A stretch of DNA of 64,000 nt from a bacterium (GTDB lineage: Bacteria > Elusimicrobiota > JBDRMW01 > JBDROU01), in contig JBDROU010000046.1 of the NCBI GenBank assembly GCA_043809745.1, positions 1,733-65,732 of the forward strand, written 5' to 3'. The first letter of the stretch is position 1; each line of letters starts with the position of its first letter. Below the pieces are notes generated by a model. The model was not told where the DNA came from. It ran no database searches and worked only from the letters and a program-made list of their open reading frames with translations. A program made the translations under genes and the position numbers. This document shows positions 11,334-54,453 of the stretch, piece by piece.

Positions 11334-11334
11334 T

Positions 11335-12182: not shown

Positions 12183-12787
12183 TCTTAAATCAAATTGAAT
12201 CAGAAAATACTCAAAAGGCCTTTACTCTTATTGAGCTTCTCATTGCTTTATCCATATTTTCAATTGCGGCTGTGACAATTATTTCAGTATTTCAGAAGGG
12301 CCTGCTTGCCTGGAAGAAAGGCAGCAGTATAATAAGCTTAAACCAAAAAACAAGGGCTTTCTCAGAATTATTTTCAAGGGAATTAAGAAATATTAGGACT
12401 TTCTCCCCCATTAAGTTTTCCGGCGAAACAAGCAGCATCTCTTTCCCCAACCTTTCAACTGATAAAACTAAAGGTTGCTTCAACAAAACTACCTATTACT
12501 TTGATTCTATGAACAAAACAATAGTAAGGAACACAAAGAGTTTAAGTGATATATATCTAAATAATACGGGATCGGATGAACCTATGTTGACAGATGTTGA
12601 GGAATTTAAGTTGGAATACGCATATTCAAGCGCAGATCAAGGCCTTTCATGGAAAGAACTTTGGGACGCGGAAGACTCCGTCCCCAAAGGCCTTAAGATA
12701 CACTTAAAACTCCTGGATAATGAAAACAAAGAAGAAGTTTTCTCAAGATTTATATATATACCTGCAGGATATTCGCCACAAGGATGA
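12179..12787 (+). CDS. gspJ: Minor pseudopilin, GspJ-like
   Basis: '...TQKA|FTLIELLIALSIFSIAAV'. 202 aa. ATGA overlap with the previous gene. Confidence 0.55.
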   Translation: MILNQIESENTQKAFTLIELLIALSIFSIAAVTIISVFQKGLLAWKKGSSIISLNQKTRAFSELFSRELRNIRTFSPIKFSGETSSISFPNLSTDKTKGCFNKTTYYFDSMNKTIVRNTKSLSDIYLNNTGSDEPMLTDVEEFKLEYAYSSADQGLSWKELWDAEDSVPKGLKIHLKLLDNENKEEVFSRFIYIPAGYSPQG

Positions 12788-12790
12788 GAA

Positions 12791-13762
12791 ATGAATGCAA
12801 AAAATAAGGGATCAATATTAATATTAACACTCTGGATAATGGCAATTCTGTCTCTGCTGGCTATTAATATTGCAGGCAGTATGAGCTATGAACTGTATAT
12901 TACAGGAAGATTTATAGATTCAATAAAATCTTTTCAAATCCTCCAGGCAGGCATCAGAAAAGCAGCATTGCTAACTAGAATTGATGATGATACCGCAGAC
13001 AGCCTGAAGGATATATGGAGCAACAACCCTAAAGAATTTAAAAAAATACAGGTTGGGGAAGGTTATTTAACAATATCCAGGAAAAATAGCGGCGAAACAG
13101 AAGACATAGTTTACGGTTTGATTGATGAATCTAGAAAATTAAATATTAATACAGCATCTAAGGAAATTCTCAAGTCCGTAGATGGTCTGGAAGAGATTCA
13201 TGTTCATTCAATTATTGACTGGCGCGATGAGGATGATTTGTCGCTCCCAATGGGAGCTGAGAACTCTTACTATGAATCGTTACCCAATCCGTATAAGTGC
13301 AAGAATTCGCCCTTTGAAAGCCTGGATGAACTTCTTCTGGTAAGAGGATTTTCTCCTGAACTACTATCAAAAGTAAAAGACAAATTAACGGTTTTCAGTA
13401 GCGGACAGATCAATATAAACACCTGCACATTCGAAACATTGAAATCTATCGGGCTGGATGATAACACCATCCAGATAGTAATAGACTACAGGAATGGCAA
13501 TGACGCCGAAGAAGGCACCGAAGACGACAGGATATTCACTAATCCAAAATTAATACTGAGCGAACTCTTAACCGAGTATCAGCTCAGCGAAGGCGAATCT
13601 GCGCAGATTACGGGTATAATTGATAAAAATATATTATGCGCTAACACTGAATATTTTCAAATGAACATCGAAGTGGAGTTAAACAAAGAAATAACCAATA
13701 ACGCATATATAATATTTAACAGGAAAAACGGCGAGATAGTATATTGGGACGAGGAATATTAA
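12791..13762 (+). CDS. gspK: Minor pseudopilin GspK-like (no Glu+5)
   Basis: 'MNAKNKGSILILTLWIMAILSLLAI' lacks the Glu+5 residue, as is characteristic of GspK. 323 aa with helix-hairpin-helix-like repeats 'LDELLLVRGFSPELLSKV'. Confidence 0.6.
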   Translation: MNAKNKGSILILTLWIMAILSLLAINIAGSMSYELYITGRFIDSIKSFQILQAGIRKAALLTRIDDDTADSLKDIWSNNPKEFKKIQVGEGYLTISRKNSGETEDIVYGLIDESRKLNINTASKEILKSVDGLEEIHVHSIIDWRDEDDLSLPMGAENSYYESLPNPYKCKNSPFESLDELLLVRGFSPELLSKVKDKLTVFSSGQININTCTFETLKSIGLDDNTIQIVIDYRNGNDAEEGTEDDRIFTNPKLILSELLTEYQLSEGESAQITGIIDKNILCANTEYFQMNIEVELNKEITNNAYIIFNRKNGEIVYWDEEY

Positions 13763-15205
13763 ATGTTTCTAGGCAAATTTATTAAACCAAAAGGCACCAT
13801 AATTTCTAACATAATAGAATTCGAAGAGCACAGCATCCGACTTATTCAGTATTCCGAATCCAATGGAAAGAAGAATATACTGGGGATTTTTGAAGAGAAG
13901 GTTGATCCGGAATTAAATGAAGATTTATCAGTTAAGGTTTCTAAGCTTATAAGCAGAGCCGATTCCAAAGTGCAAGATGCCGGAATAATTATACCCAGGA
14001 GCCTAATTGCTGTTAAATATTTTACTTTCCCTTCTATCGATCCCGAAGAATTAATGGAGATGGTAAACCTTCAGCTTATTAAGGATATGCCAATCTCACA
14101 AAATGATATAAAAAGCGATTATACTGTAATATCACAAAATGGTTCAAATTCATTTGTTGAAGTATTCGCCGTGCAAAGATCGGTAACAGATCAATTTTGC
14201 AGTATATTAAAAGAAAACGACGTGCAGCCTAAATTCTGCACTGTAAGTTCATACGCGCTTTTTAGTCTAATAAAGCATTTTTATACAGAAAAGCTGGAAG
14301 ACAAAAAAATAATTGGATTAATTTATAAAAGCGTTCATAACATTGATTTTTTAATATTCAACAGCCGCGAACTGTTATTCAGCCGCAGTTTCTCATACGA
14401 AAACCAGTTAATGAACACAGATGTAACGCTCAAATTTATAAGCGACTCAATTGCATATTTCAAGAAAAAGATCACTAATAATAATTTTGATAAAATATTC
14501 ATTCTCAACGAATTAAATAAAGACGATGAGATGCATAACTCAATAAGGTTTCAATTGAACATACCAATAGATGAGCTTAACATAAAGGAACTCGCTTCAC
14601 ATTTCGTACAAACCGGGAATAAAGTCTTAGAGTTTGACGCTAAAACAGCAAAATTTGCAGGTTTGCTATTAACCGAAGATATTCATCTTGATTTCCTTAA
14701 AAGAGAGAGCCGCGCAAGGAAGGTATCGCTTTCAGTAAAAAAAGAAATTATCAAATTCATTGTATTATGCAGTTCTTCCTTAATACTCATACTGCTTATC
14801 ATCTTCTCCTGGTTCTGGAAGCAGAATCGATATCTAAATGCTCTTGAGAGCAAAATTAATTTGACTCAGCCGCTCTCTGACAGATTAAATTCCATGCGGT
14901 CAAAATCATCTATAATAAATAAATACTTAAACAGAAATAACTCAAGCATAGAGGTCCTGGCAGAAATATTTCACATGATTCCTAAAAGCGTAAATCTTTC
15001 AGGTTTTATGTACAACAGCGAAAACGAGCTTACTCTGCAGGGGACTTCTGCTAATATGTCAGATGTATTTAAGCTTGTATCTATCCTGGAAAAATCGAAA
15101 CAATTTGAAAAGGTGGAACTGAGATACGCAAGCAAAAGAGAGTTAACTGCAAAAACAATAACAGATTTTCAGATATTCTGTCATTTTGTGCCAAATGAGA
15201 GTTGA
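13763..15205 (+). CDS. gspL: GspL-like bitopic assembly protein (cytoplasmic actin-like domain, TM, periplasmic domain)
   Basis: 480 aa with a single TM 'IIKFIVLCSSSLILILLIIFSWFW' near residue 330. The gene-order position is that of gspL. Confidence 0.5.
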   Translation: MFLGKFIKPKGTIISNIIEFEEHSIRLIQYSESNGKKNILGIFEEKVDPELNEDLSVKVSKLISRADSKVQDAGIIIPRSLIAVKYFTFPSIDPEELMEMVNLQLIKDMPISQNDIKSDYTVISQNGSNSFVEVFAVQRSVTDQFCSILKENDVQPKFCTVSSYALFSLIKHFYTEKLEDKKIIGLIYKSVHNIDFLIFNSRELLFSRSFSYENQLMNTDVTLKFISDSIAYFKKKITNNNFDKIFILNELNKDDEMHNSIRFQLNIPIDELNIKELASHFVQTGNKVLEFDAKTAKFAGLLLTEDIHLDFLKRESRARKVSLSVKKEIIKFIVLCSSSLILILLIIFSWFWKQNRYLNALESKINLTQPLSDRLNSMRSKSSIINKYLNRNNSSIEVLAEIFHMIPKSVNLSGFMYNSENELTLQGTSANMSDVFKLVSILEKSKQFEKVELRYASKRELTAKTITDFQIFCHFVPNES

Positions 15206-15875: not shown

Positions 15876-15937
15876 AAAATATTTTACAATAACTTTACAG
15901 CGAATTTTACATACTTGTGGTATACTTAATTAGGCCT

Positions 15938-17029
15938 ATGAATAGATTTATACGTCTAATTATTACTATATTTCTTTTATTCCAGATACCAGTTCAATCT
16001 TGGAGCAGGACTATGCTTGCTCCCCCGCATTCAATGGAACTAATTCGCAAAAAACAAGTGCAATCCTATCAAAATGCAGTACGGGATTTTATCCGGAAGC
16101 AATCGCAAATTTATGCCTGTGCAGCTGCAAAGAATATTTACCAGCTAAAAATATTAAATTTGCCAAACACTACAGCTAGATTATCAAATATACAAACAAA
16201 TATTCGTTCTCTTACACCAGAAAAACTTCTAGCTAAATTTATGGATTATGCTCAAGAAAAAGGCGGAGGAAATTACAAATCTTTGGACCCCAAAAATTTT
16301 GATCCTGGAGATTTTCAGGACTTTATAGGAAATAAATTTATGGTTCTTGATAATATTTTTGAACTGCTTAAGCTACATATTGAAAATAATGACCAGGATA
16401 AGATTGAAGATAAATTTTCTAAAATATGCAATTATTATGAGCTAATTTCAATTGTCTTAGCCAATATTTTAGGCATAGAGGAATTTTCCACCATCTTCCA
16501 ATCGGCAGAATGGCTGGAAGAAATTCAATGGTACAAGGCCATTTTAAGCAAAACAACCAACCAAACATCTGAGGTTAAAGATTATTTAAAAGAACTTCAA
16601 AGTAAATTCACAGCTGCAGATGAGGAAATACTCGGAATGGATAATGAACAATTAGAAGAGGAATTTAAAAGAATTAACGAAGGTTATAATGTGCCAGATT
16701 ACTCTCATAAATTGTCTTATGAATTTGATTACCAAGAATTTTACGATTTCTGCTCGAATATAGGAGTAGGTACTGTTATAATGATCTTTAGTGGGTTTTA
16801 CGATAAGCTTTTACGTGGAGAACAAATAAATTTAATTTACTTTAACAAAATAACTCTAAATCTGCCTGAATATTACAGAAAAGGCATGATTCTTTTGTGC
16901 TGTTTCATTGGTAAAGATTTAGTTTACCCAAACAAGGGGGTCGTTGGTGGGATAATTAAACTTCCCCAACCTACAAAACCAGCTATTGAACAAATTGATA
17001 ATCCCTCATACTATGAAAACTCTTTATAG
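15938..17029 (+). CDS. Hypothetical secreted alpha-helical protein (candidate T2SS substrate)
   Basis: Signal peptide 'MNRFIRLIITIFLLFQIPVQSWS' then 'RTMLAPPHSMEL'. No family recognised. The track ORF begins at GTG 15917; the ATG at 15938 gives a canonical n-region. Confidence 0.5.
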   Translation: MNRFIRLIITIFLLFQIPVQSWSRTMLAPPHSMELIRKKQVQSYQNAVRDFIRKQSQIYACAAAKNIYQLKILNLPNTTARLSNIQTNIRSLTPEKLLAKFMDYAQEKGGGNYKSLDPKNFDPGDFQDFIGNKFMVLDNIFELLKLHIENNDQDKIEDKFSKICNYYELISIVLANILGIEEFSTIFQSAEWLEEIQWYKAILSKTTNQTSEVKDYLKELQSKFTAADEEILGMDNEQLEEEFKRINEGYNVPDYSHKLSYEFDYQEFYDFCSNIGVGTVIMIFSGFYDKLLRGEQINLIYFNKITLNLPEYYRKGMILLCCFIGKDLVYPNKGVVGGIIKLPQPTKPAIEQIDNPSYYENSL

Positions 17030-35845: not shown

Positions 35846-36844
35846 TTATTCTGCCGGGGTGCTTTTTTTGTCTTTCTTCGGTGTGCCGAATCTGCAAAGT
35901 AAGCTTACTCTATGCGACCCGGTTGTTTCTAGAATCTCCAACGGCCATATAAACGCGTAATCTATCTGTATGCCAAAGTCACCTGTATCAAACAGATAAC
36001 CCAACCCTAATGTTAACTCCCTGGTATTTCCTCCCAAACGAAGCCCCATAACTTTATCAAAGAAGAAGTTTTCCCATCCTAAATGAACATTTAGATCATC
36101 GTCCCTGTATGTAAGATCGACCGCGGCTAACGCTTCAGTCAGCAGCCATATATCCCCAAACAGATAACAGAATCCTAATTTATATTCTCTCGGAATCCTA
36201 TCAGTCTCAAGCAATCCTATATCGGGTTCATTAAGCATCTTAACGCTGAATCCAACACTCTCTGATTCAAAATTAGCCAGTACGCCTAAATCAACCGCAA
36301 GAGCACTGCTATACCTGCCTTTGGCAAACACAGGATCAGATCTTGTACGATCATCAAGCGTATAACCGTTGCGCAGGAATTTAATATTACCGCCTATATA
36401 TATATCCGCATTTACTTGCTGATAGACATCCAGATCATGAGCATAGTTTATTGTTGCCGTATCCTCCCTATAGAGTCCGTTAGCTATAAAGTTAGCCCAG
36501 CTTATACCCCAGGCTCCGCCGTTATCCATTGGATGAGCATACGCAAAGTAATTTAACCCCAGTTTTACCGCGGACAGCCCTGTATAAAGACGTGAGTACA
36601 TGAAGCTGCCCTCAGGCCGCTCAAGCTGGCCGATACCTGCAGGATTATAAAGTATGGAATTCACGTCATCCGCAACCGCGGTAAAAGCGCCGCCCATTCC
36701 CGCGGGCCGCGCGCCCCACCCGGAATCTTTGAACGCGCACCATACCGGCGGCGAAATCAAAAACAAGACGCTTAAGATTCCTAGAACCTTTATAATTTTT
36801 CTATGAATTTTGAGTTTCATGCTAACCACGTCCTTAAAAACCAC
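35846..36844 (-). CDS. Outer-membrane beta-barrel protein, FadL/OmpP1/PorV-like (possibly a PorP/SprF-type partner of the adjacent CTD protein)
   Basis: Signal peptide then 'GWGARPAGMGGAFTAVADDVNSILYNPAGIG', which matches the N-terminal motif of FadL/PorV-family barrels (..GRA.sG.GA.ADDA....NPA). Beta-rich with an aromatic C-terminal region. 332 aa is shorter than FadL proper. Confidence 0.5.
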   Translation of the reverse strand: MVFKDVVSMKLKIHRKIIKVLGILSVLFLISPPVWCAFKDSGWGARPAGMGGAFTAVADDVNSILYNPAGIGQLERPEGSFMYSRLYTGLSAVKLGLNYFAYAHPMDNGGAWGISWANFIANGLYREDTATINYAHDLDVYQQVNADIYIGGNIKFLRNGYTLDDRTRSDPVFAKGRYSSALAVDLGVLANFESESVGFSVKMLNEPDIGLLETDRIPREYKLGFCYLFGDIWLLTEALAAVDLTYRDDDLNVHLGWENFFFDKVMGLRLGGNTRELTLGLGYLFDTGDFGIQIDYAFIWPLEILETTGSHRVSLLCRFGTPKKDKKSTPAE

Positions 36845-36848
36845 ACTC

Positions 36849-38138
36849 TTATTTTGCTACAGCAATCACTCCGCTTATTAATTCATTATCGACCTTTAGC
36901 TGATATATATATACACCATTTTCCACACGGCTGCCATCATCATCCCGTCCATCCCATTCATGGGGCTGACCCCGAATAGTGCGAATCTTTCTTCCTGTTA
37001 CATCAAATATATTAATATTAATATTTCTGTCAGCCAGACCGTCAAACTGAGCAAAATCATTGTATCCGTCGCTGTTTGGTGTTATTATACGTTCCTTAGG
37101 CCTGTATACGCTCGGCCCCAAAGCACCAAGAGGAAACACACCATAAATGCCAAACCGATTAATTGAAGTGCTTATAAGATTTTTTTCAGTATCTATAACT
37201 CCGCCAACCAGACGCCATTCAAAACCATCCCACCAGCAGATTTTCAAATCAGTTTCTTTAAATCCGGTATAATCTTCTATACCGAAGGGTTCAACGGTAT
37301 CGTAATATAACAGAGTCAGCTTGGCTTGCTTTTGAAGCGCGGTATTGTTCGGGCCGAGTTCATATACCATCACTGGCGGCAATCCGCCTATTCCCGCGCC
37401 ATAAATCAGCGATTCGGCATTTTTTAAAATTCTCAAAGTTAAATCAGTCTTGCTCTGAAGAGCCCCGACAGGCAAATCCAATGAATTTTCACCATCAAAA
37501 GGATTAGCATCAGGGAATATAACCATACCGCCTGAAGCGCTCGCGGATCTAGTTATTTTTCTGCTGATCATTATTGATATATACTCCAACTGCTTTACCG
37601 AACCGCCTGACTGCCCTAAATATTGAATGTTGTTTGAAGCATCCTCAACAGACAGATAGAAATTTATACCCGGCTCTTCTACCATCACTCTCGGAATTTT
37701 AACCTGCCAGGAAAATTCTTTTATGCCTTCGCCTAAAGGGCCCAAAGTAAAGGTCTGCGTCATATTAGCTGCAGCACCTTTACTCTTTCCTGCAATCGAA
37801 GGTGCCCCTGATTTTGATTGTTCTACAGCTAAATTACCATTGCTGGCAACCAACTCCGCGCCCAAAAGTGATTTGTTATCGGATAATGATATGTCTAATA
37901 TAATTTCGTTTACCAGTACACCCTCTTGGGGTATGCCTGAAACACTGACCAACGGAAAGATCGGATCTTCATGGCCCAGCGGAAACAAGACTCCCTCTGA
38001 TATGATAAAACCGGCAGTAAAAGTCAACTTCTGGAGAGATTGAAAATCTCCATGCAATCTAGCATTATTCATAAAGAAAATAATTACAAACGCGACCGAA
38101 GCTGCGGTTATTTTATTCATAATTGTTTTTTTATGCAT
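36849..38138 (-). CDS. Secreted protein with a C-terminal T9SS type-B-like / CHU_C sorting domain
   Basis: Signal peptide. C-terminus 'ITPNSDGYNDFAQFDGLADRNININIFDVTGRKIRTIRGQPHEWDGRDDDGSRVENGVYIYQLKV' matches the TPNGDG.ND ... F.R.G..V ... WDG ... G.Y.Y type-B C-terminal domain. It ends 4 nt before the barrel gene. Confidence 0.55.
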   Translation of the reverse strand: MHKKTIMNKITAASVAFVIIFFMNNARLHGDFQSLQKLTFTAGFIISEGVLFPLGHEDPIFPLVSVSGIPQEGVLVNEIILDISLSDNKSLLGAELVASNGNLAVEQSKSGAPSIAGKSKGAAANMTQTFTLGPLGEGIKEFSWQVKIPRVMVEEPGINFYLSVEDASNNIQYLGQSGGSVKQLEYISIMISRKITRSASASGGMVIFPDANPFDGENSLDLPVGALQSKTDLTLRILKNAESLIYGAGIGGLPPVMVYELGPNNTALQKQAKLTLLYYDTVEPFGIEDYTGFKETDLKICWWDGFEWRLVGGVIDTEKNLISTSINRFGIYGVFPLGALGPSVYRPKERIITPNSDGYNDFAQFDGLADRNININIFDVTGRKIRTIRGQPHEWDGRDDDGSRVENGVYIYQLKVDNELISGVIAVAK

Positions 38139-38157
38139 GCTTTATCACCCGCTTGCA

Positions 38158-38913
38158 CTACTTTACTACTTCGCCGTTTTCATCTATCTTGAACCTGCAG
38201 GAATCTTTTAATACCATCCCTTTATGTAAAAGATTTACTTCAAATTTTGCGGTATACCTGCCTTTATCCAATAACATGTCATCCCACCTGGCAAAAAATG
38301 CCCTTTCCTGATTAGGATATACCGGCCAGCCGTAAGAAATAGGGACCGTTTTAACAACCTTTTTTCCTTTTAATACAGTTACTTTTCCCGTAGGTCTAAT
38401 ATGAACATTCCCTTCATTTTTCAGAACTACAGCAGCAGTGTACCCATCTTTCTCTCTACGTACAACACTTTTAGCAATTTCGACTATAGGTTCTTCTGTG
38501 CCTTCAATAAAAACATATAGAGAAACACTCATCATTACGATAAGCTGTGCTTCAGATATTGTTGGCGTAAAAGATATTTTTTCAGCCAACTCGCCCTTTG
38601 CTTCCTTAGGCACCTTAATCTTATATTTAACCACTCGAACTTCATTTGACTTTAAGTTAAATACAGGCGGATCAAAAGACAACCAATCCTTTGCCTCTAT
38701 ACCCTTATTATCTTCCAAAACAAACCAATCGTTTACCTCAATAGCAACTTCCATATCGGAATCTGTAATGTTCTTAACCGAATACTCACCCGCGTATTCG
38801 CCTTCGGGAGGTATTCTCAACTCCAATCTCAAAGGCGATATCTCCAGTTGCTGTGAAGCAAACAGCGATAAAGAACAGGATATCAATATAGTAAAAATTA
38901 ATAATTTTTTCAT
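38158..38913 (-). CDS. Periplasmic hypothetical protein, possibly PapD/MSP-like beta-sandwich (chaperone-like)
   Basis: Signal peptide. 'LEISPLRLELRIPPEGEYAGEYSVKNITDSDMEVAIEVNDW' loosely resembles the PapD N-domain pattern. No usher gene is present. Overlaps the upstream GH gene by 4 nt. Confidence 0.3.
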   Translation of the reverse strand: MKKLLIFTILISCSLSLFASQQLEISPLRLELRIPPEGEYAGEYSVKNITDSDMEVAIEVNDWFVLEDNKGIEAKDWLSFDPPVFNLKSNEVRVVKYKIKVPKEAKGELAEKISFTPTISEAQLIVMMSVSLYVFIEGTEEPIVEIAKSVVRREKDGYTAAVVLKNEGNVHIRPTGKVTVLKGKKVVKTVPISYGWPVYPNQERAFFARWDDMLLDKGRYTAKFEVNLLHKGMVLKDSCRFKIDENGEVVK

Positions 38914-41900
38914 GGCACAAAAAACTCCAATATTAACTTGGTTGTTTTATACTCATTGGGTGTTGAAGCCCTTTTGAAATCAGCCGCAATGTAAAGATAG
39001 TTAGGTGAAGTTGCCAAACCATGCTCTAAAGCTTGTCCTCCAAACTGAATACCTTCATTATCCCATATGGTCTGGTAATAATCACCATTAATAAAAGCTT
39101 CGTTTAAATCTGTTTGGGGATTATCTTTTGTATTAATGTCTTTGAACCATAAAAAGCCGTTCTCAAAATAAGAACTGTTTGTTGCTAGGTCAAGCCTCTG
39201 GTCGGGGATTTCCACCGGCACAACTTCCAGTTCATCAGTTATCTTCCAGCAAACAGGCAGTTTAGCCATAGAATTTGCACTTACTATCCCTGACGGATCT
39301 TGTATATTGTCCAGATCACCGGGATCTAAAGGGTATGGCGGCGAAGAATTTACATTATCGGTGTAAATCTGAATCCCCCAGGTAAGAGCTCCAGGGTCAG
39401 TTTCAATTTGAATATACTGGTTTGCAACAGTCCATGCAGAAGTCATCGTACTATTCCAGGTAATCTCATCTGCTTCTAAGTTATCGCTGACATTCTTTAT
39501 CGTGAATTTAACTGCATTGGGATTCCAAAGATCCATAAGCATATTATATGCTTCCCTAACCTCCCTGTAACCTAAAGGGGAGCTGTTGGTTTTTGTAATA
39601 CCCCACCACTCCTCATTCATATTATTCCCGCCGGCATCAAATGTATAGAATAGGTTTGTCCAATCACCCGTTTCATCATGAACATTTATATCACCGGAAC
39701 TTTTCCACCACTCATCAACCCATTCAAACACACAACCGCCGGCGCATACTTTACCAATATTGTCTTCACTTAAGTTTGACGAAATCTCTGCCCACTGCTG
39801 CTGTATATAACTGGCCTGTATGCTCTGAACCTCTTCTTTCGTTATATTATTCAGCCGGTCGCAGCCGAACTCGGTAATCACCAGCGGCTTGTCAGATTTA
39901 GCCGCGTAATTAGTAAATGAAGTCAGAAAAGAAGGGCCGTAATAAATATTCACCGACCAAAGATCTGGATCAGCAACCGCTTCATTTACAAATGATACTT
40001 CAGTAACAGATGTTGAAACCGGGTGTGAGACAACACCTTCTTCCGCATGAGCAGCTGAAACACAACTATTAAAGAAAGTATACCACCCATTAACATCCCC
40101 TGTTTGCTTGCTCACTTCATTACCAAGCTGCCAGAACAAAACAGCAGGATGGTTTTTGTACTTGTTCACGATATTTAAAAAGTCATCGCGGATAGGGTCG
40201 GTTTGCACCGGATTACCCCAATTCGTATTGGGATCAACACTGTGATTAATAATCACAAATAAACCCAGCTCATACAAAACATCTAAAGCAGGGAAAGGCC
40301 CGCCGGTTTGAGCCGGATAAGGATCCGCGAACAATCTTATGGAATTCGCTCCCATTACTTTTATCAAATTAAAATCCGTTTCATAAATATCCGGATTGTT
40401 AGCCCAATCATATCCAAATGTAAAACCGGGAGGCACCGGAGAATAATTAACACCCTTAACCGTAAATGGCTGCCCGTTGACTATAAGCCTGTAACCGTCA
40501 ACATTCACTGAAGCTGCACCTGTCTGTGTGGCTTCTACCTCAATTCGGACATTATCTACATAAAACTTCAAGCCGTTATAAACATCGGGATTGACCATAG
40601 TATCATCCCATGGACTTATAAGAAAAACTATGTCTGTTTTAGAAAAATCCAACCAATCAAACTCAAACGAAGATAAGGGAATGGAAATCTCATGCCACTC
40701 ATTTCTTACGACACCGGTATTATCTCCCTTCATCGGATAGCCGAATAGGCTCACACGTTTTTCCGGACTTTCTATGAAAATTCCCGGATTAAACCTATCC
40801 TCAGCTTTCATTTTAATAACAAAATCCCTAACATAAACATTCGGGACCACATCTCCGACCAAAAGCGAAAATTTCAGTTCACCGGATTTAAAATCTGTGA
40901 GATCAACCGGATCATTCGGCTGAATAAATATGCCGCCGTAATTTGCAGTACCCACTATAATCTCTAAACAATTATCTCCTTCAGGCATAACGGAGCCTAC
41001 ACCAGGCACGATTGTTACGGTATTAGCTACAGGTCCGCCAAAAGCAGGGTCCGGAAAGACTCTTAATTCACTTGAAACAGGAATACCAACATCGCTTAGT
41101 ATGTTATATTTAAAAATCTCAGTAGCAGAATTTACAAAAATCGGGACTGTGTCTGAACCTCCTCCTTGAGCTGCCGTAAGGAAATCAGATCCTATGGTAT
41201 TAGCAGTAACAGAAATAGAAGCCCCTGTTGCAGGATTAATTGATGCTAACCCGTTTATGACCGACCAGGAGGGATTAGCTGAAACCAGCTCATTGTTGAT
41301 GTCGAAACCCCAGGCTTTAAAATCTTTAGATTGACCCGGCGTAAAATATCCCCTCCCCGGAATTATAACAATATCAGTTGGAGATCCCAGATTATAAGAA
41401 GAATATCTTAAATCATCTATATTAAAACTCAGTCCCTCAATGACGCCGGAATATGGAGGTTGGGTATCATTGATAATGTAGAAGAATGAATGTATACGAG
41501 TAAAGTTTACGCCTGTAAAATGCGCCAGCGGTATAGAAATCTGGCGCCATACATTGTCGTCCCTAACACCATAATCGTATAATCTAAGGTTTTTTTCTTG
41601 TATAGTACCTGAAAGATTTTTGCTCTGTATGCCGATTTTAAGCATGCTGACATTATCCAGCGTGTGATGGAGGTCAGACTTAACCCAGAACTTTATGTAG
41701 CTATAAGCTGACATATCCTTAATATCCGATAATTCTTCCGTTCCGTTTCCGTTAGCATCGCTTCTAACAGCCATGCCGAACCAGGTTCCTCCGCTTATAT
41801 TTACACCTTTGAAGCTATGTCCTCCCTGCATATAATCGACATTATCACCGGTGGTATATGCGCTTGTTACAAGATTCCACCAAAACTGAAACTGAGCATT

Positions 41901-42053
41901 TGCTTCTGGCCCACCTAGAATTGCGCCGGCATGTCCGCTGCTCAAGACACCATAATTATCAGCAAATGCAATACTTATTAGAGGGGAATAAAAAAAACCT
42001 AACCCCAGAATTAGCCAAAAATAACGGATTTTATTACGGGTGTAGGTTTTCAT
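38910..42053 (-). CDS. Large secreted clan GH-A (TIM-barrel) glycoside hydrolase with an unknown N-terminal region and an unknown ~220-aa C-terminal domain
   Basis: Signal peptide 'MKTYTRNKIRYFWLILGLGFFYSPLISIAFA'. Central 'VKGVNYSP...ANSIRLF...FWQLGNEV' (acid/base NE) and 'PLVITEFGCD' (nucleophile TE.G) are GH-A hallmarks (GH2/GH5-like). C-terminus '...LYIAADFKRASTPNEYKTTKLILEFFVP' is homologous to the 42279..43025 protein. Confidence 0.65.
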   Translation of the reverse strand: MKTYTRNKIRYFWLILGLGFFYSPLISIAFADNYGVLSSGHAGAILGGPEANAQFQFWWNLVTSAYTTGDNVDYMQGGHSFKGVNISGGTWFGMAVRSDANGNGTEELSDIKDMSAYSYIKFWVKSDLHHTLDNVSMLKIGIQSKNLSGTIQEKNLRLYDYGVRDDNVWRQISIPLAHFTGVNFTRIHSFFYIINDTQPPYSGVIEGLSFNIDDLRYSSYNLGSPTDIVIIPGRGYFTPGQSKDFKAWGFDINNELVSANPSWSVINGLASINPATGASISVTANTIGSDFLTAAQGGGSDTVPIFVNSATEIFKYNILSDVGIPVSSELRVFPDPAFGGPVANTVTIVPGVGSVMPEGDNCLEIIVGTANYGGIFIQPNDPVDLTDFKSGELKFSLLVGDVVPNVYVRDFVIKMKAEDRFNPGIFIESPEKRVSLFGYPMKGDNTGVVRNEWHEISIPLSSFEFDWLDFSKTDIVFLISPWDDTMVNPDVYNGLKFYVDNVRIEVEATQTGAASVNVDGYRLIVNGQPFTVKGVNYSPVPPGFTFGYDWANNPDIYETDFNLIKVMGANSIRLFADPYPAQTGGPFPALDVLYELGLFVIINHSVDPNTNWGNPVQTDPIRDDFLNIVNKYKNHPAVLFWQLGNEVSKQTGDVNGWYTFFNSCVSAAHAEEGVVSHPVSTSVTEVSFVNEAVADPDLWSVNIYYGPSFLTSFTNYAAKSDKPLVITEFGCDRLNNITKEEVQSIQASYIQQQWAEISSNLSEDNIGKVCAGGCVFEWVDEWWKSSGDINVHDETGDWTNLFYTFDAGGNNMNEEWWGITKTNSSPLGYREVREAYNMLMDLWNPNAVKFTIKNVSDNLEADEITWNSTMTSAWTVANQYIQIETDPGALTWGIQIYTDNVNSSPPYPLDPGDLDNIQDPSGIVSANSMAKLPVCWKITDELEVVPVEIPDQRLDLATNSSYFENGFLWFKDINTKDNPQTDLNEAFINGDYYQTIWDNEGIQFGGQALEHGLATSPNYLYIAADFKRASTPNEYKTTKLILEFFVP

Positions 42054-42278
42054 ATTATCGCTCCATTAGCAACTGATATCAAAAAACTCTCTAGAGATCA
42101 CTCTACTGCTAAAACGCTCATTATATGTCGCTGCCGCGATATTGAGCGCACCACAAGCATCCCGCACTTCAGCAAGCTCAATATCAAGACTATCCAAAAG
42201 GATCTCTACCGGGCATTTCTTCTACCCCAATTTTTGGAATCGAGGTAGAAGATAAAACCCAATATTTTTCAAACTAAA

Positions 42279-43025
42279 TTACTGCCAGAACAACTCCATC
42301 GTTAGAGTGTTGGTCTTATACGTGTTTGGAGTTGATGCGTTTTGAAACTTAGCGGCTAAGTATACAAATGCTGTATTATCAGCCGGTTGAAAATAATCAA
42401 ATGTAGCTTCCGCATGGTGAATTCCGCCATACTGATTCCAAACTGTAATATAATCCTCACCGTCAAGAAACGCGGTTGATCCGCCTACAGCCAATGTGGC
42501 TCTATCCTTCATCCACAGAAACGGGTAGTAATCTGCCGCGAAACCATCTAGTGTAAGATTGTTTGTAGCATTTTGAGTAATATTAAGAGCATCTGTTGTG
42601 TCGTCAACCACTCTCCAGGCTAAAGGCAGCATTCCCGCATTCGGATTATCAACAGTCAACAAACCGGCAGGATTGATATCAGCCGGATCTCCAGTAAACT
42701 GAGGGTTTGCTATAGCACTCGTGTTGTTTGTGAAAATCTGGACTCCCCAGCCCGATCTGTTATAAGTGTTGGTGACTTCCAAGTACTGATCTGCGGCCTT
42801 CCAGTCAGTGACCCCAAGAGTAACATCACTCCAGCTCAACTCAGTAGTTGCGGCATCACCTATCCTATTGCGGATTACAACACTCAAAGTTCCGCTGGGT
42901 GCTTCATTGAATACCACGCTGGCAGTGTTAGTCGATCTCAATATTGGCGTAAACGCTGCCAATAACGCGCTTGGTAAAGCAGCTACAAAAGCAAACAAAC
43001 TAACTAAGAAAAGTAACTTCTTCAT
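42279..43025 (-). CDS. Secreted stand-alone paralog of the C-terminal domain of the 1047-aa glycosidase
   Basis: RBS AAGGAGGA, signal peptide 'MKKLLFLVSLFAFVAALPSALLA'. 'WGVQIFTNN...LPLAWRVVDD...VYLAAKFQNASTPNTYKTNTLTMELFWQ' aligns with 'WGIQIYTDN...LPVCWKITDE...LYIAADFKRASTPNEYKTTKLILEFFVP'. Confidence 0.6.
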   Translation of the reverse strand: MKKLLFLVSLFAFVAALPSALLAAFTPILRSTNTASVVFNEAPSGTLSVVIRNRIGDAATTELSWSDVTLGVTDWKAADQYLEVTNTYNRSGWGVQIFTNNTSAIANPQFTGDPADINPAGLLTVDNPNAGMLPLAWRVVDDTTDALNITQNATNNLTLDGFAADYYPFLWMKDRATLAVGGSTAFLDGEDYITVWNQYGGIHHAEATFDYFQPADNTAFVYLAAKFQNASTPNTYKTNTLTMELFWQ

Positions 43026-43422
43026 TTAACTATCCTCCTTAATAATTATTTGTAATTTCACTTCTAAAAACTAAACTTATCCCCCCTTTCATAATATAAT
43101 ATTCTGTATTTCTTTACTATAGTGTACAATAGCGATATTAAGAAAATGTAAAAAAATTGTAAAGTTTTTGTAAAATCTAAAATAACGAAAAACCAGGCCC
43201 AAACATTTTTATGTGGTTGAATCAAGTTTAAATGGGAAGCAGCATATCCTAAAAATACAGGGAACCACATAAAAATAACTTATGTTCTTATAAGATCTCT
43301 ACTACACTCGGCAGGTCTATTAAAATGATCTTTTGGAACCTTAATTATAGTTAATTTAGCTAGGAAGTGTCAAGCATTTTTGATTCTAATTTTAAGCATT
43401 TTTTAGGGAACCCAGAGAAGCT

Positions 43423-49942: not shown

Positions 49943-50575
49943 TCACCAAACTCTTATTTTTTTAAACTTATCTAAATTAAAGGCAATCACAAGGCTCAGC
50001 AAAGGCAAAAAAACATCAAAAGCGATAAACCCATTTAGAATCATATCCGGTAAAAAAGTAAAAATTATATCTCTTAAGAAACATGCAAATCCCAAGGATA
50101 AAGCAATAAATACAAAATTACGAATTACAATAATAATAATATTCCCAACAATTACACCTGTAACCGCTCGATCAAGATGCTTATATATTGCCTGGAAATA
50201 ATCAAAAAATATAGACGACTTCTTTTTAAACCAAAGATCATATACATGGAAACTCATAGCAACAATAAAAGCGAAGAGTATTGCAATTGTCTTATTATGA
50301 ACAACCGGAGATGCAACTCCTATAAAAAAAACTCCTGCTGTAATTGAAGACATAATCGCGGCATCTAATGGAATAACAACTCCCAAAGGAAGCATATCGA
50401 TGCATATAAGCTCCAGGATAACACCCAAAGTAAACCCTTCAACAGGGGCATTGAAGCAAAATCCAAATACTGTTAAAAGAACCAGCGGCCTTGAAAGCAA
50501 CATCTGTCCTACAAATGTAACGTCTAGCGAAAACACCGAACCGATTAATGAAATTAATAATATTTGTTCAACCAT
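49943..50575 (-). CDS. PTS mannose-family EIIC component
   Basis: Polytopic membrane protein immediately upstream of EIID. The ATG at 50575 overlaps the upstream GH57 gene's stop; the track's TTG at 50626 gives an N-terminal extension. Confidence 0.65.
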   Translation of the reverse strand: MVEQILLISLIGSVFSLDVTFVGQMLLSRPLVLLTVFGFCFNAPVEGFTLGVILELICIDMLPLGVVIPLDAAIMSSITAGVFFIGVASPVVHNKTIAILFAFIVAMSFHVYDLWFKKKSSIFFDYFQAIYKHLDRAVTGVIVGNIIIIVIRNFVFIALSLGFACFLRDIIFTFLPDMILNGFIAFDVFLPLLSLVIAFNLDKFKKIRVW

Positions 50576-52688
50576 TGGCAAGTGTGGAAGCCGAAATTCT
50601 CCATTCCCATAAAAATGAAGAGTCAATATCTAAACCAAACTTACAGTGGGGAGTAATACTTATTCCCTGAAAGGTTTTCTCAAAACCATCTTCAGATTGT
50701 GATACAGTTTCTATAGGGAACTGCCATATATTTACTAAATTATTAAAACACATTTTTACCTGCGTATTTTTTTCAGCGGCGTTCCACAAAAACTCATTTG
50801 AAAATAACTCTTTTTTCTCTTTATATTCGCTGCCAAGCAGCAAATTTAGCTCAACTCCAAACCACAAGTCTACTTTTTGCTTACAGCAGTTCTTTATTGT
50901 ATATAGTACCTTAACCTCACTATCAGGTAAAAATTCAAACCTTTTGCTTACAAATATAGGACAATGGCAGTCTCCTACCCAAACATTCCCTCTGTTTGAC
51001 AGCTCTAATATGATATTACTATCCTTTTCCTCATGTACGCTCCATTTATATTGGGCGAGCACAAAATCCCCCTGCTCCCCGTACTGACTTTTTTCATACT
51101 CATCAAGCCTGGCAAATGGATGGAAAAAGTGATCCAAAAAAGTCAATCTATCGTACCAATCATAAAATAAGCTTTCCTTCAAATCACTTTGCTTAGTTTT
51201 TACTAAACCATGTATAGTTTTAACTTCACCATCTCCCTTATTCTCGCCTTTATCCACAACAACAAGTTTTTCTAACTTTTCATGGTATGCTTCTTTACGC
51301 CTAGTAATCACATTTGTAAGATTTACAGAGTTAGGTTTATAATCCCATTCTATAACAGATCCACCGCGATGAGGAGCAAAATAGAAATTCTGCTGCTTAC
51401 CTTCAATAAGGACCTCCTCAAAACCATCACAATTAAAGTCTTCTATTAGATGCCAGTAATTCTTGCTTTTTGAAGAAGCTATCCCATTATCCGTTAAGCT
51501 TTCTGCTTTTATCAGGTTGCTGTATATGGCCTCCCTAAGATGAGGAAGATACAATCCTCCAAAAACACCATGCCAGTAAGCGCAGTTGCATTGTCCGGCC
51601 CATAGATGGTTGACAGCATCCGAAATAAAATTCTTGTTTCCTTCAACTGATTCAAGCTTATGGACCTTTTGGCTTACCAAAAGCATTTTTTTGTGCATAG
51701 CATTTGATTCAGGATATTTATACAAAAAATTTCTCCAAAGCGCGCCGCGCAAAAATGACATATCTTCTTCTGACATGTCGTTCATGTTCATACGCTTCAA
51801 AAAATGCTCAAATTTTATTTCCATATCCGAGGGCAGCGTCCACTCGGACATCTCAAAATAAGAAGCTGTTGGTATATAAAGCATACCCTTGCCGGGAAAA
51901 GACTTTGAAAAATCGCTGAATTTCCAGGTCTTTATCCATTCCTGGTTTTCATCGAGTAGAGTAAAGAACTTATCCAGCCATCCTTTTTCGTACACATGCT
52001 TATAAGTCCCAGGCCAAAGCCCAAACTTCTCCCCATCATCAGCCATTACAAGAAGTCCCTGATCATGTTTTTCAGCGTACTGCCTGAAATAATCAATGCA
52101 TTTTTCCGCAGTACTGAATGGTATCATGTACCTTAACATTTTGTTAATTGGGAACAGTTTGACAGTAACTCCTTGTTCCTCAGTTACAAAATAACCTGTC
52201 AATTTATCACATGAAATTCCTGCTGCCTGAAAATGCGCATCATCCAGAATGGTATACTCTACACCGGCCTCAGCTAATACCTTGGGAAGGTGCGGTTCCC
52301 ACACACGTTCTGTTAGCCAAAGACCTTTAGGCATAAATCCAAAACAATCTTTAATAAACTTACTTTGTTTTTTTATTTGACCTATCTTATCGCTATCCGG
52401 AAGCGAAGAAAGTATCGGTTCATAATATCCGCCTGTTAGAAGCTCAAGCCTTCCCGTGGAAACCATATTTTTAAGTTTCGCAAGAAACTCAGGCTTATAT
52501 ACTTTTAGCCAATCAAACAAAACCCCGCTAACATGCAGATTCCAGTTTATACGCGGATGCTTCTCCAGAACCTCTAATAAAGGCTGGTATGAACTGGCAA
52601 AAGCTTTTTCCAGGACCTCACTAAAATTACCGACAGGCTGGTGGTTATGGATGCCAAAAATAAAATTTACTGTTCCCATATTTGACAA
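50568..52688 (-). CDS. GH57 4-alpha-glucanotransferase (Thermococcus-type)
   Basis: 'NFIFGIHNHQPVGNF...WLTERVWEP...GVEYTILDDAHF' is near-colinear with the N-terminus of characterised GH57 4-alpha-glucanotransferases (HxHQP motif). Confidence 0.8.
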   Translation of the reverse strand: MSNMGTVNFIFGIHNHQPVGNFSEVLEKAFASSYQPLLEVLEKHPRINWNLHVSGVLFDWLKVYKPEFLAKLKNMVSTGRLELLTGGYYEPILSSLPDSDKIGQIKKQSKFIKDCFGFMPKGLWLTERVWEPHLPKVLAEAGVEYTILDDAHFQAAGISCDKLTGYFVTEEQGVTVKLFPINKMLRYMIPFSTAEKCIDYFRQYAEKHDQGLLVMADDGEKFGLWPGTYKHVYEKGWLDKFFTLLDENQEWIKTWKFSDFSKSFPGKGMLYIPTASYFEMSEWTLPSDMEIKFEHFLKRMNMNDMSEEDMSFLRGALWRNFLYKYPESNAMHKKMLLVSQKVHKLESVEGNKNFISDAVNHLWAGQCNCAYWHGVFGGLYLPHLREAIYSNLIKAESLTDNGIASSKSKNYWHLIEDFNCDGFEEVLIEGKQQNFYFAPHRGGSVIEWDYKPNSVNLTNVITRRKEAYHEKLEKLVVVDKGENKGDGEVKTIHGLVKTKQSDLKESLFYDWYDRLTFLDHFFHPFARLDEYEKSQYGEQGDFVLAQYKWSVHEEKDSNIILELSNRGNVWVGDCHCPIFVSKRFEFLPDSEVKVLYTIKNCCKQKVDLWFGVELNLLLGSEYKEKKELFSNEFLWNAAEKNTQVKMCFNNLVNIWQFPIETVSQSEDGFEKTFQGISITPHCKFGLDIDSSFLWEWRISASTLANG

Positions 52689-52698
52689 TAGCTAGAAA

Positions 52699-54453
52699 CT
52701 AAATTTTAACCGCTTCCAGTTTTTGAGGCTCTACTCTTTTAAACGTTTTATAATCTATATCTGGGAAAGGGTTGTTTTTGTTCCTAATAGCGCTCAATAT
52801 TTCTTTGGCCTTATCATCATCTTTGTTTGATTTGATTAGGTGTATTATTTTCTTAAAGTATTGATAGTGCTCCATGAACCTTTCACGGGCATAGTCGCGT
52901 GCCTGACCGGTAGTGATAAGGAACGGCCAATCAGAAGACTGCATCAATACTAACTCCCTGGCTGCCTGCTGCAGTAATTCCAGCTTAAAACCATTCGCAT
53001 CAGGATACTCACTGACAACATTTTCCATCTCCTCTTCCGATGCATGAATGTAAGGCCAGATCCATTCGGTATCCGGGTTGTTCCATACATAATGACCGCC
53101 GCCATTGCCCCATGACGACTCCAGCAGCTCTATAACCCTGGGAGGTTGAACAGAATCCACAAATTCGCCTATAGTACGTCTGCGTACATAAGGATTTGCG
53201 TTAATCTTTTCTACTACCTTTTCTATCCAGGAAATACCTTCAAACCACCAATGCCCGAATAGTTCGGTATCATATGGAGCGAGAATAACACCTTCCTCCC
53301 TATTATTTGCATAAAAATTCTTCAACAATTCTTCAACCAGTTTGTTAAAATGATCGGAATTTTCGTTTACTCTTGGAATTGTATTATCCAGAGAATAAAT
53401 ATCCTTATATCCAAGATCCGTATCGCGTCCTGTAATCTTCCAGTACTGTAATCCTGATTGAGAATCTTTCTTATGAAACTCTCTATAGTTGCCATCTCCA
53501 GGGTAACCCCATTCTCCGCTCCACACCTGCAATCCTGTTTCCTTATTTCTGCCTAACGCAATACATCCGGACTTAAGAAGGTATGGAAAATATGTTGATG
53601 CAGATCTCTTCTGAGAATAATCTATTTTAGGCGGGAGTATTTCCTTATATAGTCCCATCATCTTCCCTCCCCAGAAAGCTGATCCACCTTCAATCGCATG
53701 TGAATCTGTAATGAAATATTCAATACCATTAGCCACTAAAAATTCGTCTATCCCTTTTTTCCAGTAACTCTCATTCTCACCCAATCTGTTAAGATATCCA
53801 GGCCTATAAGCGCACTCCGGCAACCAGATGCCCCTGGGTTTTCTATTGAAATGCCTTTGATAAGTTTTGACTCCAAGTTCAATCTGAGCTTGGATGGAAG
53901 AATCCCTATTAAGCAAAGGGAGATAAGCATGTGTGGCAGCTGAGGTCAATAACTCTATATGCCCTTCTTCTTGAAGAAGCCCAAAAGCCTTTACTAAATC
54001 CCTCCTGAATTTCTCAAAATATACATACTGAAGATTTTTAAAATAATTAACATAAAAATTACTCAAAGCATAAAACTTTTTTTCACCTGAACGTTCGAAT
54101 CTCTTGCAATCCATCTCAGCCCTTGACAGCCTGTCATTAAGATAATTTTCAAAATTCGCTAGCATATACGGATCGTTTAATTGTTCAAGCAGAACAGGTG
54201 TTAATCCAAAAGTTAATTTTGGAGATATATTTTTTTCTTTTAATCGATACAGCATATCAAGCATCGGGAGATAAGTTTCTAGAATGCCTTCATATACCCA
54301 TTCTTCCCCAAATGGCCAGTATCCTGCTTTCCTTACATACGGGAAGTGGCTGTGAAAAACAAAGCAAAAGCTCCCAAACTTTTCGGTTTCCGGGTTATTA
54401 ACTCTCATAAATCGCTCCTTTCCCTTACAAAATAAAAATTGGCGCCAAAACAA
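52699..54453 (-). CDS. GH57 1,4-alpha-glucan branching-enzyme-like protein (GH57 plus DUF1957 architecture)
   Basis: 'FCFVFHSHFPYVRKAGYWPFGEEW' (GH57 HxHxPY motif) and 'GLTPVLLEQL'. 584 aa with an alpha-helical C-terminal half, typical of GH57 glycogen branching enzymes. Confidence 0.7.
   Translation of the reverse strand: MFWRQFLFCKGKERFMRVNNPETEKFGSFCFVFHSHFPYVRKAGYWPFGEEWVYEGILETYLPMLDMLYRLKEKNISPKLTFGLTPVLLEQLNDPYMLANFENYLNDRLSRAEMDCKRFERSGEKKFYALSNFYVNYFKNLQYVYFEKFRRDLVKAFGLLQEEGHIELLTSAATHAYLPLLNRDSSIQAQIELGVKTYQRHFNRKPRGIWLPECAYRPGYLNRLGENESYWKKGIDEFLVANGIEYFITDSHAIEGGSAFWGGKMMGLYKEILPPKIDYSQKRSASTYFPYLLKSGCIALGRNKETGLQVWSGEWGYPGDGNYREFHKKDSQSGLQYWKITGRDTDLGYKDIYSLDNTIPRVNENSDHFNKLVEELLKNFYANNREEGVILAPYDTELFGHWWFEGISWIEKVVEKINANPYVRRRTIGEFVDSVQPPRVIELLESSWGNGGGHYVWNNPDTEWIWPYIHASEEEMENVVSEYPDANGFKLELLQQAARELVLMQSSDWPFLITTGQARDYARERFMEHYQYFKKIIHLIKSNKDDDKAKEILSAIRNKNNPFPDIDYKTFKRVEPQKLEAVKI

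Follow-up and report, generated by a model that had tools for sequence, protein, structure and literature searches.

The 64-kb stretch of Elusimicrobiota DNA that was analysed (hereafter the window) carries five minus-strand open reading frames, all of them present as originally predicted, which we name A, A', B, C and D in the order in which they would be transcribed. They encode a small secreted protein made of a signal peptide and one copy of a domain that we call the A domain (gene A, 42279-43025, 248 aa); a large secreted protein with a clan GH-A domain and a C-terminal A domain (gene A', 38910-42053, 1047 aa); a secreted protein of two Ig-like domains that is a distant WxLIP homologue (gene B, 38158-38913, 251 aa); a putative anchor subunit with a C-terminal type-B sorting domain, or CTD (gene C, 36849-38138, 429 aa); and an outer-membrane beta-barrel of the PorP/SprF superfamily (gene D, 35846-36844, 332 aa, or 324 aa in the NCBI gene call, which starts 8 codons later). 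The tight packing claimed for the last four genes holds, with a 4-nt overlap between A' and B, a gap of 19 nt between B and C and one of 4 nt between C and D, and gene A is separated from A' by 225 nt. Exact database look-ups, run for the proteins of the window and for NCBI-only homologues, returned no record.

Two candidate expression elements accompany gene A. About 320 nt upstream of its start codon, a promoter-like site (43344..43373, minus strand) agrees as a pattern match with 12 of 12 positions of the sigma-70 consensus (TTGACA, an 18-nt spacer and TATAAT), and just after its stop codon lies a stem-loop (42219..42253, minus strand) with a 15-bp stem and no U tract. The predicted folding energy of the latter is −30.2 kcal/mol (z=−4.5), none of 200 shuffled sequences folded as well, and strong hairpins stand at the same place 3' of the small-A gene in nine related loci. 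This stem-loop probably acts as an attenuator or stabilises the mRNA, so that A is expressed above the level of the downstream genes, and A is probably the most abundant component of the set.

The original prediction had pointed to a fifth related gene upstream of the operon and to a C-terminal domain of unknown type on the glycosidase, and the two prove to be related: A and the C-terminal part of A' are paralogous (29% identity over ~200 aa, BLASTP 5e-22), so that an undescribed domain is common to A and to the last ~200 aa of A', where the family HMM finds it at 2.6e-38. In both proteins it occupies the extreme C-terminus. No family in Pfam or NCBIfam matched A, whose homologues are 30-47% identical to it, and a search of the A profile against PDB returned no sequence at E<=10; the AF2 model of A is all-beta and poor (pLDDT 52.9). 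The remainder of A' comprises a signal peptide, a CBM-like region (a weak CBM_11 match at about aa 100-180) and a GH-A domain at aa ~505-850, followed by the A domain at aa ~848-1046. The GH-A assignment is borne out by Glyco_hydro_2_C (45.6 bits, cutoff 21), GH72 (37.4, cutoff 25.9) and Cellulase/GH5 (35.0, cutoff 23.5), all within aa 505-850, and by PDB matches to GH2 beta-glucuronidases at 2e-8, which identify the catalytic domain as a (beta/alpha)8 barrel of clan GH-A. A protein of the same make-up, GH plus A domain, fills this slot in the related locus L096.

Protein B had been described as chaperone-like and PapD-like. The PapD-like label stands only at the level of fold, and the sequence and operon hallmarks of a PapD-like chaperone (PF00345/PF02753, an usher, pilins) are lacking, with a PapD_N match in only 2 of 90 family members. 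What the prediction missed is that B, which has no Pfam match of its own, is a distant WxLIP homologue, with two Ig-like domains in the order PGBD (PF06030, DUF916) then HBD (PF11797, DUF3324), and that a small and a large protein beside it reproduce the architecture of a WxL cluster. Its family is unnamed and exceeds 2000 clusters at 50% identity. Members are 240-290 aa long, compared with 337-365 aa for WxLIP (PMC10599100), and B itself is complete at residue 251, immediately behind the second beta-sandwich, and has neither a hydrophobic tail nor a C-terminal transmembrane helix. A lipoprotein reading, suggested by Cys13 in an L-I-S-C context, was rejected because homologues carry ordinary AxA-type signal peptides.

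In Firmicutes, WxL clusters contain a small WxL protein, a large one with a C-terminal WxL domain, a WxLIP and usually an LPXTG protein (PMC9772566, PMC10599100), an arrangement that we also saw directly in E. mundtii plasmids, and a WxL-WxLIP complex has been solved (PDB 9i25). The WxL domain itself is a C-terminal all-beta domain of ~160-190 aa with two Trp-x-Leu motifs. The domain shared by B's neighbours A and A' is not recognisable as WxL. The Pfam WxL model (PF13731) gave no match at E<=1 in six A-family proteins; an hhalign comparison of A2 with ten small WxL proteins reached 37% probability over 22 N-terminal columns only, and a 17-sequence A alignment reached 0.2% in global and greedy local modes. 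Since hhalign gave no support, we do not file A under WxL. The C-terminal motif TYKTNTLTMEL of A resembles TYKSTLTWEL of WxL proteins.

Protein C consists of a signal peptide, a variable N-terminal part, a conserved module at aa ~190-340 that is ZU5-like (a weak ZU5 match) and a CTD at aa ~345-429. The type-B identity of the CTD was correctly predicted: it scores 45.0 bits against CHU_C (PF13585, Pfam cutoff 27) and 37.5 against the NCBIfam type-B model TIGR04131 (cutoff 35), and falls below the cutoff of the type-A model TIGR04183 (21.3 against 23). In PDB, the C family profile matches the CTDs of PorU (E=3.4e-4) and PorZ. The view of C as a cargo protein has to be revised: because C is 35% identical over its full length to its counterpart in L001, and because the pre-CTD module recurs directly before the CTD in other barrel-adjacent proteins, we prefer to see it as a conserved anchor subunit that carries no cargo. 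Elsewhere, barrel-adjacent CTD proteins are giant fn3/CBM proteins, and the C protein of L002 has an A-like domain fused at its N-terminus (6e-10).

The neighbouring protein D, predicted to be a FadL/PorV-like barrel, is indeed an outer-membrane barrel, though of the PorP/SprF superfamily rather than an ordinary FadL. It passed the Pfam PorP_SprF model (PF11751, 37.9 bits, cutoff 22.3) and stayed below the NCBIfam cutoffs for PorV_fam (58.5, cutoff 90) and TIGR03519 (41.3, cutoff 90.55), and the sole PDB match of its family profile was PorV at E=0.69; these results together make D a distant member of that superfamily. A FadL transporter was rejected, as no PF03349 match was listed, and UPF0164 (18 bits) and TraF_2 remained below cutoff. 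NCBI annotates D as PorP/SprF, a T9SS protein. We found 775 homologues, many with a fused C-terminal OmpA domain, and conserved motifs at the N-terminus (AFKDSGWGxRPxGMGGAF) and C-terminus (GSHR..RF). By analogy with Bacteroidota, in which barrels of the PorP type serve as anchors for type-B CTD proteins and PorP also binds PorE, an OmpA_C-like protein (PMC9143113), D is presumed to be the docking site for the CTD of C.

Related loci were gathered with the D alignment in genomes and a close A alignment in metagenomes, and were scanned with A, B, C and D family models built in this analysis from few sequences. The D alignment search found 474 relatives among species genomes, and 81 of the 102 D-family barrels in the fetched loci had an adjacent CTD gene on the same strand. 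The pairing of CTD protein and barrel is thus no peculiarity of this locus but occurs widely, in Elusimicrobiota as in many other candidate phyla, with several pairs per genome in some cases (L001, L002, L003). T9SS is known to occur in FCB-group phyla, in many of which the pair was also found. With the CTD/barrel pair already widespread, the new part of the locus is the other three genes, A, A' and B.

At least 14 other loci contain all five genes, arranged in four different orders: L001, L096, L005 and L007 (the last with a weak A match, E=1e-4) and ten metagenome loci (L097, L101, L108, L112, L113, L117, L118, L126, L129 and L132), with partial sets at contig ends. Of the 16 A-anchored loci that span 8 kb or more, 12 contain B, and in three of the other four the sequence runs out within about 2.5 kb of A. 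The recurrence of the same set in other loci leads us to regard the five genes as one functional unit, as originally suggested. The surroundings of the CTD/barrel pair are also as non-Bacteroidota-like as had been claimed, namely an LPS-making genome with housekeeping neighbours (LptA/B, KdsA/B, LpxL, HldE, dcw genes and a T2SS/T4P-like operon), and no T9SS core gene was found among the scanned ORFs of the 64-kb window, the longest of which encodes 1047 aa.

Functionally, we propose that the products of the five genes assemble into a single complex, with an anchor and a display module, on the surface of a diderm bacterium that makes LPS, a reading to which we give roughly even chances. The gene set and its conservation are established, as are the kinds of domain that make up B, C, D and the catalytic part of A', and the presence of the A domain in two proteins; the physical contacts, surface location and stoichiometry are put forward as a model, and the outer membrane may be crossed by way of a T9SS translocon (SprA/Sov, driven by PorL/M and PorK/N) encoded elsewhere or by something else. 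In the anchor module, the type-B CTD of C would dock on the barrel D, much as Bacteroidota use PorP to hold PG1035 and SprF to hold SprB. The display module would consist of A, small and probably abundant, and A', with its CBM-like parts and GH-A glycosidase, which share the C-terminal A domain and, like B, have no CTD. B, which lacks the WxLIP membrane helix and could thus lie in the periplasm or at the surface, may bind and stabilise the A domain by donating a beta-strand, by analogy with WxLIP-WxL and PapD-type chaperones, and the A-domain proteins would thereby be held on C-D, which would place a polysaccharide-degrading enzyme on the cell surface.

Such a layout would be a Gram-negative counterpart of the Firmicute WxL/Csc cluster, with CTD-to-barrel anchoring in the outer membrane in place of sortase anchoring to the wall. 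In both, all the proteins have signal peptides, a small protein consists of the shared domain only, a large one has that domain at its C-terminus behind variable functional domains, and a two-Ig-domain WxLIP homologue is accompanied by one protein with a dedicated anchoring signal; the role first proposed for WxL/Csc clusters was carbohydrate utilisation (PMC9772566, PMC10599100, PMC1534035). In contrast to those clusters, the cassette belongs to a diderm with LPS, its shared domain shows no similarity to WxL that sequence or profile comparison could detect, B has no C-terminal membrane helix, and the anchor is a type-B CTD protein with a barrel instead of sortase/LPXTG and peptidoglycan. The anchor half resembles the PG1035-PorP-PorE and SprB-SprF systems of Bacteroidota (PMC9143113, PMC12618676), in that a gene with a CHU_C/TIGR04131-type CTD adjoins a PorP/SprF-superfamily barrel, an OmpA-like peptidoglycan-binding partner is frequent (in many cassette homologues it is fused to the barrel) and a genome may hold several pairs. 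Unlike these systems, the cassette lies in a lineage outside Bacteroidota for which no T9SS core is known, D scores too low for the NCBIfam PorP and PorV models, C is a conserved subunit that carries no cargo, and WxLIP-like and A-domain proteins are encoded alongside the pair, in a set of five genes.

The likeness to Bacteroidota also invites a plainer reading, an ordinary T9SS cargo operon, in which a full T9SS (SprA/Sov, PorK/L/M/N) is encoded elsewhere, C is a cargo, D its cognate PorP/SprF shuttle, and A, A' and B serve polysaccharide utilisation, being co-transcribed with C-D but not physically joined to it. The passing of T9SS-associated Pfam models by both CTD and barrel, the PorU and PorZ matches, the NCBI label of D and the many FCB-group phyla with such pairs all fit this reading. 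However, C is small, conserved end to end and free of any enzyme or adhesin domain, the five genes stay together through four gene orders, and an A-like domain is fused to the C protein in L002; a literature search on T9SS in Elusimicrobia or Poribacteria yielded nothing relevant, and reviews call the system Bacteroidota-specific (PMC7463736). We regard a plain cargo operon as unlikely on this evidence. As to the export route, it is compatible with the surface complex that we favour.

Alternatively, the products could build a chaperone-assisted surface fibre or lattice, with A as the polymerising major subunit, A' as an enzyme-bearing minor subunit, B as a periplasmic chaperone of PapD type, which would cap the A domain through donor-strand complementation, and C-D as base and outer-membrane anchor. 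The cassette shares with chaperone-usher pili a two-Ig-domain protein of PapD-like fold, an outer-membrane barrel in the operon, a small abundant subunit beside a larger one with a functional domain, and a hairpin after the major subunit gene. A strong candidate promoter of its own and a conserved hairpin are what would be expected for a major subunit, the terminal position of the A domain and the occasional PapD_N matches in the B family point the same way, and an incomplete fold could account for the poor monomer model of A, although a shallow alignment would account for it equally well. Against this, the operon lacks an usher (its barrel has about 300 aa, an usher about 800 aa), A gives no pilin-family signal, and WxLIP is a closer relative of B than PapD is, and we consider a fibre possible but improbable. 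Least probable is a tether in which C, for want of a translocon, stays periplasmic and binds D from inside, D-OmpA fusions link outer membrane to peptidoglycan and periplasmic or wall glycans are the substrate of the glycosidase, a reading in keeping with the lack of a T9SS core gene among the scanned window ORFs, with the peptidoglycan-binding OmpA domain on many D homologues and with the peptidoglycan association of WxLIP and WxL in Firmicutes (PMC10599100), but at odds with such CTDs being known only as export or anchoring signals of surface proteins (PMC9143113, PMC12618676), with the typically extracellular character of the giant CTD proteins of other loci, and with the external polysaccharide substrate suggested by the CBM-like parts of A'.

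For the surface complex that we favour, one further, more speculative step can be considered. The CTD/PorP-like pairs of Elusimicrobiota and of several other non-FCB lineages such as Poribacteria, if they operate without a T9SS translocon, might represent an older, self-standing means of fixing proteins to the outer membrane, and the A/B module a diderm ancestor or sister of WxL/WxLIP in which B is a strand-donating chaperone; we think this distinctly unlikely. WxL/WxLIP clusters are regarded as a speciality of Lactobacillales and Bacillales that is tied to the thick Gram-positive wall, and type-B CTD/PorP pairs as part of the Bacteroidota T9SS. If the T9SS-free scenario were true, the cassette would link monoderm and diderm surface display and define a new outer-membrane display pathway. 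The analysis itself shows a WxLIP homologue, from an unnamed family, to be part of a conserved cassette of uncultivated diderm bacteria that also encodes a CTD/PorP-type anchor. Should the surface-complex model hold, it would give a function to three families of 'hypothetical proteins' (A, B and the pre-CTD module of C), offer a tractable five-protein system for type-B CTD docking on PorP-like barrels, with or without T9SS, and explain how glycosidases could be displayed on the outside of these cells.

The five minus-strand ORFs of the original prediction (35846-43025) were recovered exactly by translation: A (42279-43025, 248 aa), A' (38910-42053, 1047 aa, the longest ORF in the window), B (38158-38913, 251 aa), C (36849-38138, 429 aa) and D (35846-36844, 332 aa), all five with a hydrophobic, signal-peptide-like N-terminus as read from the translations. 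The last four are tightly packed (A' and B overlap by 4 nt, with gaps of 19 nt between B and C and 4 nt between C and D), and A sits apart, 225 nt upstream of A'. A pattern match to a sigma-70-type promoter (12/12; 43373-43344, minus strand) lies ~320 nt 5' of the start codon of A and would thus imply a long AT-rich leader (43025-43373, minus strand), for which no matching Rfam family was found. Directly 3' of the A stop codon is a 15-bp stem-loop (42219-42253, minus strand; −30.2 kcal/mol, z = −4.5) that lacks the U tract of a canonical terminator and may set the ratio of A to A' expression. In nine related loci (L096, L097, L101, L104, L105, L108, L110, L115 and L117), too, the small-A gene has a strong hairpin behind it (z from −4 to −9.3); these loci have the conserved sequence UAAUCAGAUAACUCUCU...GGGUGGGAGC...GCUCCCACCC... 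in common. Such hairpins would fit A being made in excess.

Evolutionarily, the nearest relative of B is the WxL-interacting protein (WxLIP). An exhaustive profile search recovered 2339 representatives of the B family at 50% identity (E ≤ 1e-3), nearly all of 240-290 aa, and its profile matched both domains of the solved Enterococcus faecium WxLIP1 (9i25_C, 9i1y_A; E = 5e-5). Among 90 members scanned, 20 matched the WxLIP_PGBD domain (DUF916), four WxLIP_HBD (DUF3324) and two PapD_N, with a single member exceeding the PGBD cutoff (29.2 versus 27.3). The AF2 model, built from the 90-sequence alignment, has two beta-sandwich domains (pLDDT 95.3), so that the earlier description of B as PapD-like is correct at the level of the fold but misses its closer kinship to WxLIP, whose C-terminal membrane helix B lacks.

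The glycosidase call for A' was borne out, with a clan GH-A catalytic domain at residues ~505-850 that scored over the cutoffs for GH2_C, GH72 and GH5; the nearest solved relatives of this catalytic domain are GH2 enzymes, and a weak CBM-like signal precedes it. The small A protein is paralogous to the C-terminal ~200 residues of A' (5e-22), defining a shared A domain. Neither A nor B has a Pfam or NCBIfam family, and the A domain did not match Pfam WxL. Homology of the A domain to WxL found no support in hhalign either, the probability being 37% across just 22 columns at the N-terminus and 0.2% with a wider A alignment. The structure model of A was poor (pLDDT 52.9), and fold searches with it came back empty. 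Three resemblances remain, namely a C-terminal motif (TYKTNTLTMEL versus TYKSTLTWEL), an all-beta prediction and the small/large architecture, and we therefore claim that the cassette works like a WxL cluster, not that it is one.

The type-B sorting domain (CTD) proposed for C was upheld by Pfam and NCBIfam models (CHU_C, 45.0 bits, cutoff 27; TIGR04131, 37.5, cutoff 35), with the type-A model scoring just under its cutoff; among PDB sequences, a profile of C-type proteins matched the CTD of PorU (E = 3.4e-4) and that of PorZ. D had been called a FadL/PorV-like barrel. It passed Pfam PorP_SprF (37.9 bits, cutoff 22.3) but fell under the cutoffs of the more stringent NCBIfam models for PorP/SprF and PorV/PorQ and had no FadL match listed, while its profile reached PDB entries for PorV at no better than E = 0.69; by sequence, it is a distant member of the PorP/SprF superfamily. 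A large protein collection held 775 D homologues, those with names being Elusimicrobiota and Endomicrobiales MAGs, and a scan of one genome per species confirmed 474 relatives, the closest (37-43% identity) in Elusimicrobiota and remoter ones in Poribacteria, FCPU426, Goldbacteria, KSB1, Calditrichia, Zixibacteria, Cloacimonadota, Aerophobetes, Omnitrophota, Marinimicrobia and others. For 81 of the 102 D-family genes in the fetched loci, a CTD-bearing gene is adjacent on the same strand, as counted with HMMs built for this analysis from its own alignments, and a protein identical to D already carries the NCBI label 'type IX secretion system membrane protein PorP/SprF'. Given this, the pairing of CTD protein and barrel is real but neither rare nor unannotated: it is an already known type in a little-studied lineage.

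D-type barrels with adjacent CTD genes also occur on L061 (labelled a Thaumarchaeota archaeon) and on L042, L050 and L064 (labelled Negativicutes or Clostridia), which are probably mis-binned contigs, an outer-membrane barrel being unexpected in those lineages. Many D homologues (L001 17125-18723, P0003-P0005, P0007, P0010, P0013 and others) carry a fused C-terminal OmpA peptidoglycan-binding domain, and a further L001 ORF (4509-5831) matches the D barrel model (1e-24) together with TPR Pfam models, TPR being a domain also present in Bacteroidota PorE. PorP of Bacteroidota binds a type-B CTD protein and also PorE, whose OmpA_C-like domain binds peptidoglycan, and in F. johnsoniae six porP-like genes adjoin porE-like genes (PMC9143113); the D-OmpA fusion is a single-polypeptide equivalent of PorP plus PorE.

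C had been read as cargo but is better seen as an anchor subunit: it aligns over its full length with its L001 counterpart (35% identity) and can be aligned with those of nine further loci. No enzyme or adhesin domain was recognised in the cassette's C. Its variable N-terminal part is followed by a conserved pre-CTD module (37104-37570, minus strand; aa ~190-345) and the CTD, and this module recurs directly before the CTD in far larger fn3/CBM proteins beside D-type barrels (L003 4465-9921; L004 26-6289). One of these gave a weak ZU5 match (19.5 bits, under the cutoff of 21); ZU5 domains are capable of self-cleavage, which makes processing of C conceivable. In L002, a 566-aa C-type protein (7777-9477) has an N-terminal A-like domain (6e-10), tying the A domain to the anchor, and a PilZ-like ORF lies between it and the barrel. 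Close relatives (L102, L103, L105, L107, L108, L116, L117 and L124) encode an additional CTD protein of 441-457 aa immediately upstream of small A, a slot that in the window holds a radical-SAM HemW-like gene, as read from its translation.

The five-gene set recurs beyond the window. L001 has the same order at 33-36% identity, with a 428-aa non-GH large protein and an OmpA-fused D; in L096, A is followed by a 1328-aa GH2_C/GH72 protein with a terminal A domain and then by B, C and D, with one extra ORF between the last two; and the Elusimicrobia MAG loci L005 and L007 also hold the set (L007 with a weak A match, E = 1e-4). An A-anchored metagenome scan gave 43 loci, ten with the full set and six more broken off by contig ends, in four gene orders (A-A'-B-C-D, A-A-B-A'-C-D, B-A'-C-D and D-A-B-C-A'). 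Among the 16 loci that span 8 kb or more, 12 contain B, and three of the four lacking it break off no further than about 2.5 kb from A. In L093 (2865-7442; also L094 and L095), an 892-aa protein with an A domain near its N-terminus and a 330-aa A-domain protein precede B, and a PKD-repeat protein follows before the contig stops short of any C or D.

The cassette's neighbours are housekeeping genes of an LPS-making diderm: LptB, LptA-like, LpxL, KdsA, KdsB and HldE, dcw/mur genes, UvrB, LepA and LepB, PTS components, HprK and RapZ, with glycogen enzymes and RNase P RNA also in the window. The glycogen/alpha-glucan genes (1547-4468 and 50568-54453, both minus strand) encode a 973-aa GH77/GDE fusion, a GH57 alpha-amylase/4-alpha-glucanotransferase and a GH57 branching enzyme. 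A secretin/GspE/GspF/GspK-like/PilN-like operon of T2SS or type IV pilus type (4980-15205, plus strand) has a 370-aa ORF without family match on its 3' side (15917-17029, plus strand); no link between this secretin-based system and the cassette was found. As first noted, no other T9SS core gene occurs among the scanned window ORFs. Reviews call T9SS Bacteroidota-specific (PMC7463736), and the searched literature yielded no paper on T9SS in Elusimicrobia; C, A and A' could cross the outer membrane through a T9SS encoded elsewhere or by another route.

Firmicute WxL clusters always hold a small WxL protein (the domain only), a large one with a C-terminal WxL domain behind variable functional domains, and a WxLIP, most adding an LPXTG protein (PMC9772566, PMC10599100); on two E. 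mundtii plasmids the order is LPXTG, small WxL, WxLIP, large WxL. The window likewise has a small A and a large A' sharing a C-terminal domain, a WxLIP homologue (B) and, as counterpart of the anchor protein, C with its dedicated anchoring signal plus barrel D; like large WxL proteins, A' has an N-terminal part whose length varies among loci (about 200 to 2300 aa). The original prediction was right about the locus and in part about its interpretation, and in the literature searched there is no description of a five-gene cassette that combines a WxLIP homologue with a new shared domain. One prediction has a WxLIP strand completing the WxL sandwich (PMC10599100), and the PDB contains a WxL-WxLIP complex (9i25). 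Apart from the conserved ...GSHR..RF terminus observed in the D family, we infer the following steps: all five proteins would be exported by Sec, D would insert into the outer membrane, C would dock on D via its CTD, and B would bind A and A' through strand complementation of their A domains, such that A-domain proteins assembled on C would place the CBM-GH enzyme at the cell surface.
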